Below are positions 513 to 8,939 of a stretch of 64,000 bases of DNA, one piece after another. The DNA comes from an uncultured Methanomassiliicoccales archaeon (GTDB lineage: Archaea; Thermoplasmatota; Thermoplasmata; Methanomassiliicoccales; UBA472): assembly GCA_963695345.1 (NCBI GenBank), contig OY968769.1, positions 2,048,001 through 2,112,000 of the forward strand, in the 5' to 3' direction. Numbering within the stretch: position 1 is the first letter of the stretch; the number at the start of each line of letters is the position of its first letter. The notes under the pieces were generated by a model. That model saw only the letters and a program-made list of their open reading frames with translations, was not told the origin of the DNA and made no database searches. Made by a program: the position numbers and the translations under genes.

Positions 513-1197
513 ATGCGGGAGCAGCTCAGGGAAAAAATGGCTGGTGAGATCGTTCTTTCCGTCGATGCGGGCAAGACGATCAGGAAGTGGAGAGAGGAGT
601 TCGGGGTCTCTCAACAGGAACTGGCAAAGTACATGGGCGTCTCCCCTTCGGTCATCAGCGATTATGAATCGGGTAGGCGCAGGTCTCCCGGGATCGTCAT
701 CGTCAGGAGGCTGGTCGATGGTCTCATCGCGCTTGATGAGGCGTCCGGGGGCAAGATACTGAAGAAGTATGACCTGGGCGAGAAGAGCGATTGCATCATC
801 AGCATCAAGGAGTTCAAGTCGTCCTTCAAGGCATCGGACTTCGTCCAGACGATAGAGGGCGAACCGCTCACCAAGAGCGTCAGCCTGGATATGGACATTC
901 ACGGGTTCACCATCATCGATTCGATGAAGGCCATCACCGCCCTCAGTTCGATGGACTATCTGAAGATCTACGGCTGGAGCAGCGAAAGGGCGCTCATCTT
1001 CACCGGGGTCAAGTTCGGCCGGTCGCCCATGATCGCCATCCGGGCGCATCCCGATGAAGCCGGCGCTGGTGGTATATCACCGTCCGGAACACGTGGATGA
1101 CCTGGCGATCCGCCTGGCGACGCTGGAAGGACTGCCGCTGATCAAAACGACATTGCCGATACAGACCCTCGTCGAGAGGCTGGAACGCGTAGAGTAA
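513..1197 (+). CDS. XRE-type HTH transcriptional regulator (COG1709-like), apparent +1 frameshift near 1050
   Basis: HTH motif SQQELAKYMGVSPSVISDYESGRR. Removing one C in CATCCCGATG restores HPMKPALVVYH...LERVE* ending TAA at 1197. Confidence 0.8.
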
Positions 1198-1210: not shown

Positions 1211-2271
1211 ATGGATGTGGGTATTGTAAGCTACGGGGCGTACGTGCCAAGATACAGGATCGGGCCACAGGAGATCGGCCGGGTCTGGGGCGCGGATGGG
1301 GAAATGATGTCCAAGAACCTTCTGATCTTTTCCAAGTCCGTCCCGGCCCCCGATGAGGATGTCATAACCATCTCCGTGGAGGCGGCACGCGCCATGATGC
1401 GCGCGGACCAACGTGAACCCCCAGGACATCGGGGCGCTGTACGTCGGTTCGGAATCCCACCCCTATGCGGTGAAACCGACCGGAACCGTCGTCGCCGAGG
1501 CCATCGAGGCCTCGCCGAACCTGACCGTGGCCGATTTCGAGTTCGCCTGCAAGGCCGGAACGGCCGCCATCCAGGTATGCATGGGACTGGTCGGCTCGGG
1601 CATGATCAAGTACGGCGTGGCCATCGGCGCCGACACCTCCCAGGGCGCACCCGGGGACCCGCTGGAATACTCCGCCTCGGCCGGCGGCGCCGCCTACCTG
1701 ATCGGTTCCCGCGAGATCATCGCCAAGATCAACTCCACCTTCTCCTACACCACCGACACCCCCGACTTCTGGAGGCGGGAGGGTCAGCCCTACCCGTCCC
1801 ACGGCGGGAGGTTCACCGGCGAGCCGGCATATTTCAAGCACGTCTCCGCCGCGGCCAAGGGCCTGATGGAGAAGGTCGGGCTCGAAGCCGACCGACTACC
1901 AGTACGCCGTGTTCCACCAGCCGAACGGTAAGTTCCCGATGCGGGTGGCAAAGCAGCTGGGATTCACCGAGAAGCAGATCGAGACGGGCCTGCTGACGCC
2001 GGTCATCGGCAACACCTATTCCGGTGCCGTCCCGCTGGGACTGGCGTCGGTGCTGGACGTGGCCGCCCCGGGCGACCGGATCTTCGTCGTGGCCTACGGT
2101 TCCGGCGCGGGCGCGGACGGTTTCGACATAACCGTCACCGACAATATCTCCGGCTACCGGCGGGAGGAAGCCCCCACGATCAAGCAGATGCTGGAGAACA
2201 AGAAGTTCATCGATTATGCCACGTACGCGAAGTTCCGCGGCAAGATCAAGCTCAAGGAGGGATCCGAGTGA
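1211..2271 (+). CDS. Archaeal hydroxymethylglutaryl-CoA synthase, split by two apparent +1 frameshifts (about 1405 and 1884)
   Basis: Three consecutive frames join into GAYVPRYRI...[11 protein letters not shown]...EFACKAGT (catalytic Cys)...FHQPNGKFP...GNTYSG...YGSGAG. Confidence 0.9.
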
Positions 2272-3434
2272 GAGAGGTAGCGGTCATTGGAATCGGCGCC
2301 ACCAAGTTCGGCGAGCTGTGGGACCTGTCGTTCCGCGAGATCGGCATGCAGGCGGGATTGGCGGCGGTCTACGACGCCAACCTGTCCGGCGAGGACATCG
2401 ACGCCCTGTACGTGGGCAACATGTCCGCCGGCCGTTATATCCAGCAGGAGCATGTGGCGGCGCTCATCGCCGACTACTCGGGCATGGCCCGGGACAACAT
2501 ACCGGCGACCCGGGTGGAGGCCGCCGGGGCGTCCGGGGGCCTGGCGCTGCGCCAGGGCTACATGGCGATCGCCTCGGGAATGCATGACATCGTGGTCGTC
2601 GGCGGAGCGGAGAAGATGACCGACGTGGGCGATGCCGAGTCCAACGAGATCCAGTCGTCGGCCGCGGACGAGCAGTGGGAGGTGACGTTCGGAGCGACGT
2701 TCCCGTCGCTGCACGCCATGATAGCGCGCCGGCACATGCACGATTTCGGCACCACCCGCGAGCAGATCGCCCAGGTGGCGGTCAAGAATCACAAGCACGG
2801 TTCGCTGAACCCGAAGGCCCAGTACCAGAAGGAGATCAACCTGGACACGGTGCTCAGGTCTCCCCTGGTCTCGGACCCGCTGGGCATGTTCGACTGCGCC
2901 CCGAACTCGGACGGGGCGGCGGCGGTGGTCCTGTGCGCCATGGAGAAGGCCAAGAAGTACACCGAAACACCGGTCAAGATCCTGGCATCGGGGCAGGCGT
3001 CCGATACGCTGGCGCTGCATCACCGCAACAGCATCGTCGGGTTCGACGCCACCCGGGTCGCGGCCGAGCGGGCCTTCAAGCAGGCCAGGCTGACGGCGAA
3101 GGACGTCAACTTCGCCGAGGTCCATGACAACTTCACCATCTCGGAGATACTGGCCATCGAGGACCTGGGCTTCTTCCCGAAGGGGGAGGGCGGAAAGGCC
3201 ACCATGGACGGGCAGACGCTGCTCGGCGGGAAGATCGCCATCAACACCTCCGGCGGTCTTAAGGCCAGAGGCGACCCGATCGGGGCCACCGGGGTGGCAC
3301 AGATCGTCGAGGTCGTCACCCAGCTGCGCGGTCAGGCGGGAAAGCGCCAGGTCTCCGACGCGAGGGTCGGACTGGCCCAGAACGTGGGTGGGACCGGCGC
3401 CACCGCCGTCGTGCACATCCTGGGGGTGGCCTGA
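2268..3434 (+). CDS. Archaeal acetoacetyl-CoA thiolase-family protein with substituted catalytic residues (G87, N288, D336)
   Basis: Full thiolase fold (GAEKM, DGAAA, SGGLKA, QNVGG) between HMGS and DUF35. It has EAAGASG instead of EAACASG, HDNF instead of HDCF, and GDP instead of GHP. Confidence 0.9.
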   Translation: MREVAVIGIGATKFGELWDLSFREIGMQAGLAAVYDANLSGEDIDALYVGNMSAGRYIQQEHVAALIADYSGMARDNIPATRVEAAGASGGLALRQGYMAIASGMHDIVVVGGAEKMTDVGDAESNEIQSSAADEQWEVTFGATFPSLHAMIARRHMHDFGTTREQIAQVAVKNHKHGSLNPKAQYQKEINLDTVLRSPLVSDPLGMFDCAPNSDGAAAVVLCAMEKAKKYTETPVKILASGQASDTLALHHRNSIVGFDATRVAAERAFKQARLTAKDVNFAEVHDNFTISEILAIEDLGFFPKGEGGKATMDGQTLLGGKIAINTSGGLKARGDPIGATGVAQIVEVVTQLRGQAGKRQVSDARVGLAQNVGGTGATAVVHILGVA

Positions 3435-3839
3435 TGACCACGGCCAGGTTCTGGAGGGAGAACGCGTCCCGGTACAACATGATCGGCGCCCAGTGCACGG
3501 TCTGCGGGAAGGTGCACTTCCCCCCGCGGTCGGTGTGCCCCACCTGCCACCGCAAGTCCATCGGGAAGACTGCAGCCTATCCGGCTGAAGGGCGATGGGG
3601 AGATCTTCTCCTACACCGTGGTCCACGAGGCCCCGTCCCAGTTCGAGATGCAGAAGCCATACGTCATGGCGATCATCCGGATGAGGGAAGGGGTGATGGT
3701 CACCGGCCAGGTCATCGATCTCGACGCCAACGACCTGGAGATCGGCATGAAGGTCAGGGCCACCATGAGGAGGCTGGGATCGGACGGGCCCGACGGGGTC
3801 ATCCATTACGGCTACAAGTTCGCGCCGGTACGGCAGTAG
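3434..3839 (+). CDS. DUF35 Zn-ribbon/OB-fold scaffold of the thiolase-HMGS complex, apparent +1 frameshift about 3569
   Basis: CTVC...PPRSVCPTC Zn ribbon. Removing one base restores GKLQPIRLKGDGEIFSYTVVH...YGYKFAPVRQ*. Confidence 0.85.
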
Positions 3840-3860
3840 GGTCGGCCAGTACAACTTAAA

Positions 3861-3884: not shown

Positions 3885-4062
3885 ATGTCGACCATGCCGA
3901 AGCGGACGCTTCGGGTCATCCGATGGGGGGATCGATACCGATCCTTTGATATCGCAGGTCCAGGGCTCGGTCCCTTGACCGATGGTTTGATTTTCCGTGA
4001 CGCCATAGCATCAAGCTGACGTCCGGTTCTCTGACTGGATGTCATCCCGACCGGGTGGTAGG

Positions 4063-4521
4063 ATGTCCGAGCTCAAGACCGTGGAATACGTGGACGTGAC
4101 GAGGTACATGGGAACATGGTACGAGATAGCGAAGTTCCCGCAGAGGTTCGAGAGGGGACTAGTCGGGGTGACGGCCAAATACGCTCTGCTGTCCGATGGA
4201 ACGGTACAGGTCATCAATGGCGGATACGTCGGGGATTTTACTGGGAACTATCGGTCTGCCAAGGGCAAGGCATGGGTGGTCGACAAGAAATCCTATGCCA
4301 AGCTGAAAGTGAGCTTCTTCTGGCCGTTCGCCGCCGACTATTGGATATTGGAGATCGGTAAGGACTACGAGTATGCGGTGGTCGGCAACAGGTCGAGAAA
4401 ATACCTCTGGATCCTCTCCAGGACGCCGAGGATGGACGAGGCGGTGTATCAGGACCTGCTCCGTCGCATCGGTGAGATGGGATTCGATATCTCGAAACTG
4501 GAAAAGAACCCGCAGAAGTAA
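4063..4521 (+). CDS. Lipocalin (Blc-like), no signal peptide
   Basis: RYMGTWYEIAKFP, LKVSFFWPF, DYEYAVV and YLWILSRTP lipocalin motifs. Confidence 0.9.
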   Translation: MSELKTVEYVDVTRYMGTWYEIAKFPQRFERGLVGVTAKYALLSDGTVQVINGGYVGDFTGNYRSAKGKAWVVDKKSYAKLKVSFFWPFAADYWILEIGKDYEYAVVGNRSRKYLWILSRTPRMDEAVYQDLLRRIGEMGFDISKLEKNPQK

Positions 4522-4604: not shown

Positions 4605-7600
4605 TCATTCGACGGTAATCTCGAACTCGGATTCGAACCCTACCTGCTCCTCGGAGAGTACCGATTTGCACGACAACATCAGCTTCAGGGCGATATCGCC
4701 GGATATCCGTGGCTGGATCAGCACATCGATGGTCTTCTTTTCGCCCTTGGGCAGCCGTTCGATGTCGATGAGCCCCTTCACATCCACCTCTCCGACGATC
4801 TCCAGTCTGATATCCCGGGCCGCGGCGATGCCGTCGTTGCTGACATGCAGGCGGAACTTCGCCCAGGCGCCTTTCTTCGGTTCGTCGAGGAAATCGATGT
4901 CGATGCCGATGTCCGGCATCATCTGCTCTTTCTGCTCATCCACTTTCGCGATTGCCTGATGGAGGAGGTCCAGCCCCTGCTTGGCGTCTATGCTGCGCAG
5001 GGCGTCCGCCTTCTTCAGGAGCTGCTCCGCCGCGATCACTGGCATGCCCTGTGCCCGGACATTGTCCAGCTCCGCCTTGACCTTGTTGCGGACCTTCTTG
5101 AACTCCTCATTGGCGGCCGTGGCCACCCCGATGAGCCGCTCGCTCTTCTGCAGGGTCCGGAACGCCTCGCCCATGTCCTGTATCAGCAGCCCCCCGGTCG
5201 CGCTGGTGTACAGGCCCTCGCTCATGTTGACATCCAAGCCGGCCTTCCTGGCCTTGTTGATCCCTTCCGCCACCTTCAGGCGTTTGCGTCCGAACTCCTC
5301 CAGGACCAACTGGCGCATGGTACGTACCCCGATGCTCAGCGTCTCCAGGTCCTTCGAGCTGAAAACGCCTCCCCTGTCCTCCTGGAGCTTGAGCACGCTG
5401 GGGGCCAGCTTCGACCGGTCGTAGCCGATCTCGTTCAGCAGCTTGAACAGCTTGGTCAGCTCCGCGTAGTTACGCTCGGACTCCCGGCCGGCGATCTCCT
5501 GGAGCAAGGCCTTGGTCCGGTGAAGGAACAGCGATGATCTCTCGAAATCCAATGATAGCAGGGCCTCGTCCGCCTGGTCCAGGAGCATTTCCATGCTGGT
5601 CCGTTCCTCGCTCTCCTCCAGGAACTGGAAGTCGTGCCGGAGGGACTGCATCTCGTTCATCCTGGCCTCGAACATCTCACGCAGCTGGGTCAGTTCGTCC
5701 CGGCTGCGCATGGCCAAGGCGCTGGCCTCCGCGAAGGCATTGGCCTTCAGCTTGTCCTCGGCCTTGGTCAGCAGCTGCCTCAGGTCTTCCGAGAAGACCC
5801 CGGAGGCGGCCGCCTCATCGAACTTGGCCCGCACCTCGACGATGACCTTCCGGGCCGAGTCCCTGATATCCCTTACCTTGACAAGCTCGTCCTCATAGGT
5901 GCGGACCAGGGGGAGCACGTCACGGAACCGGCGCTGGTTGATGCGCTCGTTGATGTCCTTGCGGATACGGTCCACGATGACCAGGTCCGGTCCCTCCAGC
6001 TCTTCCCTTCGGATCTTCAGGTCGCTCTCTTCCAGCTTCCGGGAGATCATCATGTCCATGAGATGGGCCGCCTGGTCCACGGCGCGTTTCGAGAGTTCCA
6101 TGGCCAGCGGGTGGTTGCCCTGCTTCTGTATGATGCGGGCCTGATTCATGATCTCCAGCGCCGGCGAGACGTTCACGCCCAGGTCCTGGATGGCCTTGAG
6201 CGTGGCCATGGTCCGCTCGATCTGCTCGTTGGCCTTCTGCTCCATGAGCATCAGCTGGTCCAGTTCGCCCCTGGTCATCTGGGCTGCCCGGAGGGCTTCC
6301 AGGTAGCGTTTCTCCTCCAGCAGGCTGGTCGATTTCAGCAGTATCTGTTGCGGGGAGTTGGTGTCGATGCCCGCCGCCCTGGTTCTGTCCAGCAATGATC
6401 TGCACAGGTTGATCTCGCGCAGGATCCCGGACGCCAGCTGGCTCCTGATGAGCTCGATCCCGCCGTTCATCGTCTTAAGCGAGGTCAGGTGCTCATTCTT
6501 GTTCTCCTGCTCGATCGCCGCCTGTATCGACGATTCCGCGGACGAAATGTCCAGCCCGAGCGTTTCCATGGCCATGACCAGTTCCTTCGCCTCCTCTATC
6601 CTGCGGGCTGCCATGAACGGGGCCACGATGACCTCGGTCTCGGCGTACGAAGCGGTGGACGCGGCCCGGGCGTCCCCGTATCTTCCGCTCTCGAACATGC
6701 GCTTGGTCTTCAGGAGCAGGTCGGTGGCCTTCCGGGTGTCTATGCCCTTGGAGTCCGCCTCCTCCAGGAGATTGGAGATCTCCACTATCCTATCGTAGAT
6801 CTCCACGTGGACGCTGGTCAGCTGTCTCAGGCTTACCTGGGCCTCCTTGAGATTATCGAAGGCCTTCTCGAACGAGCCCTGCTTGAGGGCCCGGCCGGCC
6901 TCCTCCAGGAGATGTTCGGGCTTCATGACCTCGACGCCCTTCTTGCGCTCCAGCGAGATGGAGCGGGACGTGGAGGCCATCTCCCGGGTGAGCTCGTCGA
7001 GGATTATGGAATGTGAGAATTGGATGACGTCGTTGGCGGTGCGGAGGGCGACCATGGTGTTGTTCTTGGCCTTCATCTCCTCCGCCCGGGCCAGCTTGTC
7101 CTTGAGGGTGACGCTCTCGCAGTTGAGCTCCTTGAGGATGCCGAGCATGCTATGGGCCTCCGCCATGCGGGTCTCCAGGGCCTGCTTCTCCTCCCGGTTC
7201 AATGACTCGGCCGCCTCGGCCGCCAGGTCATAGGCGTTGACGAACTCGTTCCTCTCCGCCGCCTTGCGGGCCTGTTCCAGCATTGTCGTGGCACTGCTCA
7301 CGTCCATCGATCCCTTGTACATGTCCAGGTTAGCCTTGCCCTCGTCCAGGGCCTTCTGGACCTGGAAACGCAACTTCGCGTCGATGGTATCGGAGCATTT
7401 GGCGAGGAGTTCCGGTGCGACCGTGAACTCCCCCTTCTTGATGAGGTCGACGATCCTCTCCAGCATGCTCGTCTCGTCGTTCACGTCCACCCCGATGCGG
7501 AGAGCTCCGGCGAACTTGATCTCTATCGCCATGACATCCTTGGCGTAGTGCTCCTCGAGCTGCTTGTTCAGCTCCGAATGGGCCTCCCTGAGCAGGCCTG

Positions 7601-8939
7601 AGGCGCTGACAAACTCATGCGCCAGCGTCGCCCTCCTTGCCGAGTCCATGAAGCTCTTGGCGGTGGACGTATCCAGTTTCAGCTCGTCGGCCCGGTCCAT
7701 GACCGCCCTGGTCTTGAGCAGCTCGGATTCCAGGTCGGCCAGGCCCTTGAGGGCGGTGCCGATCTCGTTCTCGGCCGCCGAGATCTGCGCCATCGCTTCC
7801 TCGATCTCTGAGCTGGACAGGTGTGCCCTCGCCGCCTCGATCTTATTGGAAGCGCTTCCCAGGTCGATTCCCAGGCGCTTGGCGATGAGCAGTGAAGGGC
7901 GCAGCTTCAGCAATGCCTCGGAGATCAGGCCGGTCTCCTTGTCGCGCAGGGCGGTCTTCACGGACCTCGTCCCTTCGAGGGCCTCGTTGAACTTGAGGTC
8001 CTTGAGCAGGTCCTTCTGCAGACCGATCTGGGAGACAAGGTCCTTCACATCGATCCCATTCTCCTTGAGGGCCGTTCCTCTCTTGCGGAGCGACTGTAGC
8101 TCCGCGGCGAATCCCTTGGTGAGCGCCTTCTGCTGTTCACCCTCGGCCGATGACAGGGCGGCGAACGCCTCCTCGAACGAACCATGGTCCAGCAGCCCCT
8201 GCGCCTTCTTCAGGGCCTTTTCGACCTTCGACAGGTCGACGGCGAACTCGGACTGGTATTTGGAGACGTCCATCATGCTTTCGGCTCGGGCCTGGAACTT
8301 ATCGGCCAGGGCCGATTCCAGCGATTCCCGGCAGGATACCAGCTTCTCCATCGAGGAGGGCACCTGCTCTTTCTCCAGTAGGTCCCTGGCCTCCGTCAGT
8401 CCCTTGCGTTCGGCATCGACCGTTATGCCCTGGCCCTCCGCCAGCAGCATGACCGTCTGGGTCTCCCCGAAGGCGGTCGCCATGAACCGGTTGACCAGCT
8501 TCTCCACCTTGTCCCAGAGGTCCTTGGACATGGCGAAGGCATCCTCCAGCGACCCCTTTGCCAGAGCCGTCTTGGCCTCCTGCGACAGGATGGACAGGTC
8601 CTCCGCCTTGGCCCCCATTCTCTCCACATGGGTCCTAAGATCGTCCGCGTCCCCGATCATGGAGGAGACCTGGTCCTTCTGCGCCCTGAACGACGCCTCC
8701 ATGCTCTTGCTGGACATGCCCACCGATGAACGGTAATCCTTTTCTCTGAAAAATGAACTGGCTTCGGTAAGGTATTTCTCTGCCTCCGCCGAGGGGGCGT
8801 CCATCCTCTTGGAAAGCTTCAGAGATATCTCTGCCTGGACGAGCTTCTCCTCCGCAGCATCGCGGCTTTTAGCTGCCTCCTTCGCTTTTTGCTCAATTTG
8901 TTTCTTGAGCTGCAGCTGTTTGATGTAATCTCCAGTCAA
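4605..8939 (-). CDS. 1444-aa helical-repeat (about 65-aa units) rod protein with C-terminal Ig/CARDB-like beta domain
   Basis: About 20 degenerate G[IVL]D-x-x-A...L..A...L..G.[FY]..A units. The last ~105 aa are beta-rich (LHVSNDGIAAARDIRLEI...LPKGEKKTIDVLIQP). No TM segment or signal peptide. Confidence 0.8.
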   Translation of the reverse strand: MTGDYIKQLQLKKQIEQKAKEAAKSRDAAEEKLVQAEISLKLSKRMDAPSAEAEKYLTEASSFFREKDYRSSVGMSSKSMEASFRAQKDQVSSMIGDADDLRTHVERMGAKAEDLSILSQEAKTALAKGSLEDAFAMSKDLWDKVEKLVNRFMATAFGETQTVMLLAEGQGITVDAERKGLTEARDLLEKEQVPSSMEKLVSCRESLESALADKFQARAESMMDVSKYQSEFAVDLSKVEKALKKAQGLLDHGSFEEAFAALSSAEGEQQKALTKGFAAELQSLRKRGTALKENGIDVKDLVSQIGLQKDLLKDLKFNEALEGTRSVKTALRDKETGLISEALLKLRPSLLIAKRLGIDLGSASNKIEAARAHLSSSEIEEAMAQISAAENEIGTALKGLADLESELLKTRAVMDRADELKLDTSTAKSFMDSARRATLAHEFVSASGLLREAHSELNKQLEEHYAKDVMAIEIKFAGALRIGVDVNDETSMLERIVDLIKKGEFTVAPELLAKCSDTIDAKLRFQVQKALDEGKANLDMYKGSMDVSSATTMLEQARKAAERNEFVNAYDLAAEAAESLNREEKQALETRMAEAHSMLGILKELNCESVTLKDKLARAEEMKAKNNTMVALRTANDVIQFSHSIILDELTREMASTSRSISLERKKGVEVMKPEHLLEEAGRALKQGSFEKAFDNLKEAQVSLRQLTSVHVEIYDRIVEISNLLEEADSKGIDTRKATDLLLKTKRMFESGRYGDARAASTASYAETEVIVAPFMAARRIEEAKELVMAMETLGLDISSAESSIQAAIEQENKNEHLTSLKTMNGGIELIRSQLASGILREINLCRSLLDRTRAAGIDTNSPQQILLKSTSLLEEKRYLEALRAAQMTRGELDQLMLMEQKANEQIERTMATLKAIQDLGVNVSPALEIMNQARIIQKQGNHPLAMELSKRAVDQAAHLMDMMISRKLEESDLKIRREELEGPDLVIVDRIRKDINERINQRRFRDVLPLVRTYEDELVKVRDIRDSARKVIVEVRAKFDEAAASGVFSEDLRQLLTKAEDKLKANAFAEASALAMRSRDELTQLREMFEARMNEMQSLRHDFQFLEESEERTSMEMLLDQADEALLSLDFERSSLFLHRTKALLQEIAGRESERNYAELTKLFKLLNEIGYDRSKLAPSVLKLQEDRGGVFSSKDLETLSIGVRTMRQLVLEEFGRKRLKVAEGINKARKAGLDVNMSEGLYTSATGGLLIQDMGEAFRTLQKSERLIGVATAANEEFKKVRNKVKAELDNVRAQGMPVIAAEQLLKKADALRSIDAKQGLDLLHQAIAKVDEQKEQMMPDIGIDIDFLDEPKKGAWAKFRLHVSNDGIAAARDIRLEIVGEVDVKGLIDIERLPKGEKKTIDVLIQPRISGDIALKLMLSCKSVLSEEQVGFESEFEITVE

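Follow-up and report, generated by a model that had tools for sequence, protein, structure and literature searches.

A thiolase-fold subunit without thiolase catalytic residues is conserved in the mevalonate-entry operon of Methanomassiliicoccales archaea

The complex of acetoacetyl-CoA thiolase, 3-hydroxy-3-methylglutaryl-CoA (HMG-CoA) synthase (HMGS), and a DUF35 protein is the accepted entry to archaeal isoprenoid lipid synthesis, in which channelled acetoacetyl-CoA is thought to pull an unfavourable reaction. This archaeal complex is reportedly the subject of work by Vögeli et al. in PNAS in 2018. Here, we examined the operon for the three proteins in a 64,000-nucleotide stretch of DNA (the window) from an uncultured Methanomassiliicoccales archaeon (assembly GCA_963695345.1, contig OY968769.1, positions 2,048,001 to 2,112,000 of the forward strand; phylum Thermoplasmatota, class Thermoplasmata), and found that its thiolase-fold subunit has lost the residues of thiolase catalysis yet has remained under purifying selection.

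According to excerpts of Liao et al. 2026 (PMC12960953), the thiolase and HMGS clefts of the archaeal complex form a single fused CoA-binding site, DUF35 bridges both enzymes, and an H284A substitution in the thiolase motif, written HDxF in that paper, abolishes activity. The same excerpts describe the bacterial complexes PhlABC, MucABC, and PfACAT/HMGS-DUF35, in which a dead HMGS is combined with a thiolase that still has its Cys, and define PhlC/MucB-type Friedel-Crafts acyltransferases by a retained Cys, no HDxF motif, and a dead HMGS partner. For the retro-aldolases Ltp2 and Sal, the excerpted text of PMC12329534 reports a Tyr base in a YDxF/YDxY motif (YDHF, YDCY).

In the window operon, the three genes follow each other as they do for the solved archaeal complex (6ESQ/6ET9), and the HMGS belongs to the same archaeal family as in that complex. 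Its tetrad of catalytic Glu, Cys, His, and Asn was intact, in agreement with a first-pass annotation, made from the sequence alone, which had stated that this partner keeps its Cys and His. In the genome G007, whose thiolase-fold protein is 95% identical to that of the window, the intact HMGS orthologue had 352 amino acids (aa) and scored 586 bits on TIGR00748. The thiolase, however, was different. Its translation read VEAAGASGG, EVHDNFTI, and KARGDPIGA at the active-site motifs, and it was aligned by phmmer over residues 2-385 (E 6.8e-110) with the closest solved protein, the thiolase of the Methanothermococcus thermolithotrophicus complex. In this alignment, Gly, Asn, and Asp of the window protein occupied columns 87, 288, and 336, where the solved enzyme has, respectively, its nucleophilic Cys, the HDCF Cys, and the GHP His. 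Translation, codons, and alignment thus bore out the three substitutions claimed in the first-pass annotation. Since these residues are replaced, the complex cannot make and channel acetoacetyl-CoA by the known mechanism.

The three substitutions do not weigh equally. The His of the HDxF motif was present (His286), and Asn stood at x instead of Cys, as claimed, but this replacement calls for a qualification. A C-H-A-H signature at positions 87, 286, 288, and 336 occurred in 25 of 150 cluster representatives, so the third HDCF letter is not universally Cys in working archaeal thiolases, and N288 alone is therefore weak evidence. The case for catalytic loss is carried by G87 and D336 more than by N288. 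Judged by these residues, the Cys-less operon subunit cannot be a thiolase of known mechanism. It scored 569.5 bits on the equivalog model NF053570, below the 600-bit cut-off, and passed only the NCBI subfamily model NF004720, "thiolase domain-containing protein". The fold itself was recovered in an AlphaFold2 model of the G007 orthologue (predicted local distance difference test score, pLDDT, 89.1), which Foldseek superposed on 6ET9_C with a template modelling (TM) score of 0.95, a root mean square deviation of 1.8 Å, and 47% identity.

The operon also differed from the other described systems. Like PhlABC, MucABC, and PfACAT/HMGS-DUF35, it has one enzyme subunit without catalytic residues in a retained three-protein architecture, but it is their mirror image, with a dead thiolase and an intact HMGS, and it belongs to an archaeon needing the mevalonate pathway, whereas those complexes act in secondary metabolism. 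The features of PhlC/MucB-type enzymes were absent, given Gly87, the HDNF motif, and the intact tetrad of the partner. With the steroid side-chain retro-aldolases Ltp2-ChsH2 and Sal-Shy (6OK1, 9MYR), it shares an SCP2-thiolase fold, the lack of a nucleophilic Cys (Gly in CtSal), and a DUF35 partner, and 6OK1 and 9MYR were structural neighbours of the G007 model (ranks 24 and 48). Nevertheless, the Ltp2-type aldolase analogy raised in the first-pass annotation failed because the motif has His286 where those enzymes need the catalytic Tyr. Their DUF35, moreover, is fused to a MaoC-type hydratase of steroid/acyl-CoA degradation and has no HMGS coupling, unlike the operon studied here, where HMGS lies upstream and DUF35, intact in G007, is a separate 134-aa protein. 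Another archaeal SCP2-type thiolase fold, ST0096 of Sulfolobus tokodaii (4YZO; E 2.5e-76 in the alignment, structural rank 6 against the G007 model), likewise has a replaced nucleophile (Ser) and Met at x of HDxF, but unlike the window protein it keeps the GHP His. No paper on the role of ST0096 was found in our literature search.

The substitutions were conserved throughout the order. All 30 orthologue loci retrieved from the same order (76-97% identity, the window's own locus excluded) carried Gly87; position 288 was Asn in 29 and Asp in 1, and position 336 was Asp in 27 and Phe in 3. Gly87 was also found in 120 of the 120 closest database homologues, whose signatures at the four positions were GHND (100), GNND (11), GHSD (7), GHTD (1), and partial (1). 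These homologues were named Methanomassiliicoccales by their sources, and Methanomassiliicoccus luminyensis and Candidatus M. intestinalis were found with the same residues. For ten pairs among five same-genus genomes, the median ratio of nonsynonymous to synonymous substitution rates (dN/dS) was 0.029 for the operon thiolase, compared with 0.023 for HMGS, 0.055 for DUF35, and 0.057 for the canonical thiolase described below. Furthermore, the ratio of thiolase to HMGS protein distances was 1.16 in Cys-less versus 1.12 in Cys-keeping families, showing no relaxation outside the old active site. The first-pass annotation had described the rest of the protein as conserved, and this was confirmed, as was conservation of Gly, Asn, and Asp across Methanomassiliicoccales under purifying selection. 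These comparisons indicate that the Cys-less thiolase gene is neither a sequencing error nor decaying.

That the substitutions are assembly errors of a noisy genome, recent private mutations, or marks of a decaying pseudogene could at first sight be suggested by the assembly itself. Compared with two same-genus relatives (L002, L003), the window carries single extra bases at 1052/1053, 1403, 1881, and 3569/3570, four within 2.6 kb, which split a helix-turn-helix (HTH) gene, HMGS (twice), and DUF35. A Carboxyl_trans gene outside the window (G000:C1:830855-832317) lies in three frames, whereas its relatives have a single 517-aa frame, and the genome has a completeness score of 85% despite being a single contig of 2.56 Mb. 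The split genes and this completeness point to indel errors across the assembly. DNA runs of close relatives of the window strain, not of the strain itself, were compared; no RNA run was listed for this stretch. The base at 1402/1403 was missing from independent short-read contigs of runs X1, X2, and X3, and a run X2 contig left out one base at 1876, which is probably the same extra base placed at 1881 by the comparison with relatives; among these runs, no contig cleanly spanned the third indel (DUF35, about 3569). Because independent contigs of close relatives lack the bases, the frameshifts around the thiolase are most likely assembly flaws. The thiolase frame, however, was open and free of indels, in keeping with the separation made in the first-pass annotation between the indel noise nearby and the substitutions, and X1 short-read contigs (records 3 and 6) covered all three codons with no difference there among those listed. 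The same residues recurred in the order loci and database homologues, which come from many independent assemblies, so the substitutions are not private, and the dN/dS was not relaxed. Orthologue loci, homologues, and dN/dS have refuted the artefact or pseudogene explanation, to which we give practically no credence.

Given that the operon thiolase would be unable to supply acetoacetyl-CoA, the window genome was searched for another source. Thiolase_N matched only the operon gene and, far more strongly, the gene of P0272, a canonical thiolase, and a search with the operon protein as query matched only itself. P0272 scored 334 bits on Thiolase_N; on TIGR01930, where the cut-off is 240.55, it reached 450 bits, and its best Protein Data Bank (PDB) match was the Clostridium acetobutylicum thiolase (4N44; E 3.5e-141). 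Its motifs VCGSG, NEAF, GHPIG, and CLGGG provide C93, N321, H353, and C383, all four catalytic residues of the canonical biosynthetic thiolases (4N44, Zoogloea 1DLU class), to which the operon gene, unlike P0272, is only distantly related. A P0272-like thiolase was found in every one of 41 order genomes, and the four residues were kept in 33 of 33 full-length alignments. The claim in the first-pass annotation that acetoacetyl-CoA must come from elsewhere was thus supported, and of the sources it had named, another thiolase was found, 820 kb from the operon, which most likely makes the missing acetoacetyl-CoA. An acetoacetate-CoA ligase or transferase, also named there, found no support: five genomes of the order yielded neither a CoA transferase nor an acetoacetate-CoA ligase scoring above cut-off, and HMGS was the only ketoacyl-ACP synthase (KAS) III-like gene detected in them. 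In two other places in the phylum, the two kinds of gene lie close together. In family f23, a canonical thiolase gene and the HMGS/Cys-less thiolase/DUF35 operon are divergent neighbours separated by a 115-bp spacer (L098, G069:C20, 4302-5300 +; also L108), and in genome G095, the operon is followed downstream, after about 2 kb, by a canonical-type thiolase (L175 6018-7331). This linkage lends some support to a canonical thiolase serving the operon.

The first-pass annotation was correct that the residues are lost in the window genome but had seen only part of the picture, since the loss recurs through the phylum. In a class sample of 151 genomes, 145 had an operon-type thiolase and 147 a P0272-like thiolase (genome G121 was counted only in these tallies); in a phylum sample of 121 genomes, the numbers were 109 (E 1e-60) and 103. 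The state of Cys87 was then compared across 132 operon loci in 132 genomes, which included all 19 genomes with an operon match but without a second thiolase and a chosen 113 with one (1-19 per family, covering all 58 operon-bearing families). Genome G101 (family f17, 99% complete), in which neither thiolase kind matched at the thresholds used, stands outside the count, as do three loci reading C-H-C-H, L158 and L159 (family f50) and L169 (G186), which were regarded as paralogues because the best match was not beside an HMGS. Cys87 was lost in 102 and kept in 11 of the genomes with a second thiolase, whereas it was kept in 19 and lost in 0 of those without. No Thiolase_N match exceeded 124 bits in the latter (canonical enzymes score 310-335), and the operon gene was the only match in 16 of the 19. 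Therefore, across the phylum set, an operon thiolase that is the sole thiolase always keeps its Cys.

The partner genes did not follow this variation: the HMGS E-C-H-N tetrad was kept in every complete operon locus examined, and the order HMGS-thiolase-DUF35 in all 132 loci. Position 87 of the 102 Cys-less proteins was occupied by Gly (63), Asp (21), Ser (10), Thr (5), Glu (2), or Asn (1), and position 336 by Asp, His, Gln, Asn, Tyr, Phe, Arg, or Cys; position 288 was Asn, Ser, Ala, Asp, Cys, Val, Gly, or Thr among the Cys-less families. When the trait columns were masked for building the thiolase tree, at least 7 changes of the Cys state were needed on it, 5 of them forced by strongly supported branches, and on the HMGS tree the minimum was 8, which amounts to at least 5-8 separate losses of the Cys. 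Within family f61, one genome with a second thiolase read G-H-C-H and two genomes without it read C-H-C-H. Outside the window's class, many families read D-H-S-H, with Asp for the nucleophile, Ser for the second Cys, and both His kept (L139, L140, L142-L145, L152, L168), which is a different, fairly uniform solution. Family f35 showed an operon-type thiolase in 0 of 8 genomes (E 1e-60) and has a long classical HMG-CoA synthase of 516 aa whose neighbours include neither a thiolase nor DUF35 (L170 1495-3045 +, G224). In family f50, considered together with f34 (L158, L159, L169), the best thiolase match was a C-H-C-H paralogue not adjoining HMGS. Families f35 and f50 look like cases of complete replacement of the archaeal complex.

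The fate of the old active site was examined with one sequence per family, 47 Cys-less families against 12 Cys-keeping ones. In the Cys-less families, the entropies of columns 87, 288, and 336 were 1.75, 1.99, and 2.07 bits, making them more variable than 72-80% of columns, compared with 0, 1.04, and 0.41 bits in the Cys-keeping families. The pocket columns 126, 129, 130, 87, and 336 lost conservation, and no column was newly fixed in all 47 Cys-less families. Asp287 and the Gly of GHP were invariant, His286 was kept in 87% of the 47 families, and the nucleophile loop (VEAAGASGG) was conserved, as was G-x-P in the GHP motif. The Cys of the MFDCAP motif was rejected as a new nucleophile, since relatives that keep the catalytic Cys conserve it to the same degree (27 of 30 Cys-keeping versus 89 of 102 Cys-less proteins), and it is ancestral. 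Of the two possibilities named in the first-pass annotation, a pseudo-enzyme or new chemistry, the former was supported and the latter disfavoured, because positions 87, 288, and 336 vary freely among the Cys-less families; this pattern favours lost catalysis rather than a new chemistry shared by these families.

We propose that the window protein is a non-catalytic, structurally required thiolase-fold subunit of the HMGS/thiolase/DUF35 complex, with acetoacetyl-CoA coming from the separate canonical thiolase, an explanation that we regard as probable while leaving considerable room for doubt. Without a nucleophilic Cys and a GHP His, the operon subunit would have lost thiolase chemistry and would be retained since the complex needs it structurally. 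Acetoacetyl-CoA made by the distant canonical thiolase would diffuse freely to the complex, and the intact HMGS subunit would condense it with acetyl-CoA, the canonical enzyme thus presumably feeding the mevalonate pathway. The three proteins would still assemble, and the disarmed subunit would still help to bind CoA substrates; the tight constraint on it could then be explained because it would supply half of the HMGS substrate site. A complex prediction for the HMGS, DUF35, and thiolase-fold protein of G007 scored 0.91, but one control reached 0.79, so that it speaks neither for nor against binding. A narrower version of this explanation, in our view distinctly unlikely, is a regulatory or substrate-capturing subunit whose old site would bind acetoacetyl-CoA or CoA and hand the substrate to HMGS by a swinging pantetheine arm, or would tune HMGS allosterically. 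The whole protein, with its VEAAGASGG loop and G-x-P, is tightly conserved, and the archaeal complex has a fused CoA-binding site according to the excerpts of PMC12960953; both are consistent with such putative binding, but the loss of conservation in the five pocket columns of the Cys-less families argues against it.

New chemistry in the old pocket would mean that the Cys-less subunit remains an enzyme on the way to HMG-CoA but forms no covalent acyl-enzyme. It might carry out a Claisen condensation of malonyl-CoA with acetyl-CoA, either direct or decarboxylative, or another C-C reaction, by way of His286, Asp287, Asn288, and Asp336. Selection as strong as on active relatives, the G-H-N-D set conserved in the window's clade, and the retained His286 and Asp287 speak for this possibility, and according to the excerpted part of PMC12329534, the Cys-less SCP2-thiolase-like protein TbSLP decarboxylates malonyl-CoA, though very slowly. 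A Carboxyl_trans gene was detected in four of five order genomes searched, but it was not found in G029, which is 99% complete and has the same G-H-N-D protein. The variety of residues at positions 87, 288, and 336 with none newly fixed, the absence of any Cys loss without a canonical-type thiolase (0 of 19), and the lack of the catalytic Tyr of the Ltp2/Sal aldolases also stand against it. We consider new chemistry of this kind fairly unlikely, and that the Cys-less subunit and the intact HMGS still turn acetyl-CoA, alone or with malonyl-CoA, into HMG-CoA without a thiolase acyl-enzyme, very unlikely. If such retained catalysis were true, the two-Cys thiolase step would have been replaced repeatedly and convergently inside one conserved machine, and that catalysis would account for the equally tight selection on versions with and without the Cys.

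Several points nevertheless weigh against a purely structural subunit fed by the canonical thiolase. The subunit is conserved as tightly as its catalytically competent relatives, beyond the usual expectation for a simple scaffold, and the G-H-N-D set is well conserved within the window's clade (Methanomassiliicoccales with families f10 and f28); together with the kept His286 and Asp287, this would suit a ligand-binding or catalytic role. Free acetoacetyl-CoA forfeits the channelling thought to offset the unfavourable thiolase equilibrium. The canonical thiolase is unlinked to the operon in the window genome, and its mevalonate role is one that we infer. Because 11 genomes keep Cys87 despite having a second thiolase, the latter is permissive, not sufficient, and not every searched genome with a second thiolase was included, only a selection. 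A single Cys-less clade was rejected by the approximately unbiased (AU) test (p 5e-7), for a group named only after the tree had been seen. Independent contrasts were few, with 4-5 pairs, of which 2-3 went in the expected direction and 0 in the opposite one (sign test p 0.25-0.5), and for this reason the rule that Cys is lost only in genomes with a second thiolase has its basis in the 0-of-19 asymmetry and in biochemical sense rather than in phylogenetic significance.

The coordinates of the operon and of the canonical thiolase are collected in Table 1. Directly upstream of HMGS lies an HTH_3 (XRE-type) regulator (window 513-1197 +), also found upstream in G007, which may control the operon. 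DUF35 is directly followed by a bacterial-type lipocalin (Lipocalin_2, E 4.5e-48; window 4039-4521 +), and this gene also comes after the operon in G007. A 1444-aa open reading frame (ORF) on the opposite strand (window 4605-8939 -) is rich in charged, helical-looking repeats and has no Pfam match. An Rfam search of the window gave no match.

Table 1. Positions of the operon genes, the substituted codons, and the second thiolase (window numbering unless a contig is named)
Feature	Coordinates	Strand or location	Basis and remarks
Archaeal HMG-CoA synthase	1211..2271	+	EFACK, FHQPN; ORFs 1211-1996, 1413-1931, 1909-2271; three frames from extra bases 1403, 1881
Thiolase-fold subunit, 388 aa	2268..3434	+	Translation; Pfam Thiolase_N + Thiolase_C_1; PDB 6ESQ match; without thiolase catalytic residues
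Gly87 codon GGG	2526..2528	+	Column of nucleophilic Cys
His286-Asp287-Asn288, CAT GAC AAC	3123..3131	+	HDxF motif; Asn where the solved enzyme has Cys
Asp336 codon GAC	3273..3275	+	Column of GHP-motif His
DUF35 (zinc ribbon + OB fold)	3434..3839	+	Pfam zf-ChsH2, OB_ChsH2_C; ORFs 3434-3859, 3618-3839; two frames, extra base ~3569/3570
Canonical thiolase P0272, 396 aa	G000:C1:1228996-1230183	820 kb from operon	Pfam Thiolase_N search of the window genome

In the literature searched, supplements not covered, we found no account of an operon thiolase lacking its Cys in these archaea. The words mevalonate, thiolase, and HMG-CoA are absent from Borrel et al. 2014 (PMC4153887), and the bioRxiv preprint 10.1101/2024.07.05.601840, in the portion consulted, deals with other thiolase/DUF35 pairs. 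The operon described here is thus a conserved, recurrent variant of a known complex. In Methanomassiliicoccales, an order that includes a species source-named as the cultured M. luminyensis, and in most sampled families of the phylum, the thiolase half of this complex is disarmed yet conserved as tightly as a working enzyme, and no genome of the phylum sample has the disarmed form without also having a canonical thiolase. Channelling would then be dispensable when a second thiolase is available, and the thiolase-fold subunit would have a second, catalysis-independent role that is measurable. The database label "acetyl-CoA C-acetyltransferase" carried by many of these proteins, and the pathway reconstructions derived from it, would point to the wrong gene. 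Finally, these archaea would offer a natural series for the origin of a pseudoenzyme, from the complex only, through the addition of a second thiolase and a dead subunit, to the long stand-alone HMGS of family f35, where no operon thiolase was found.

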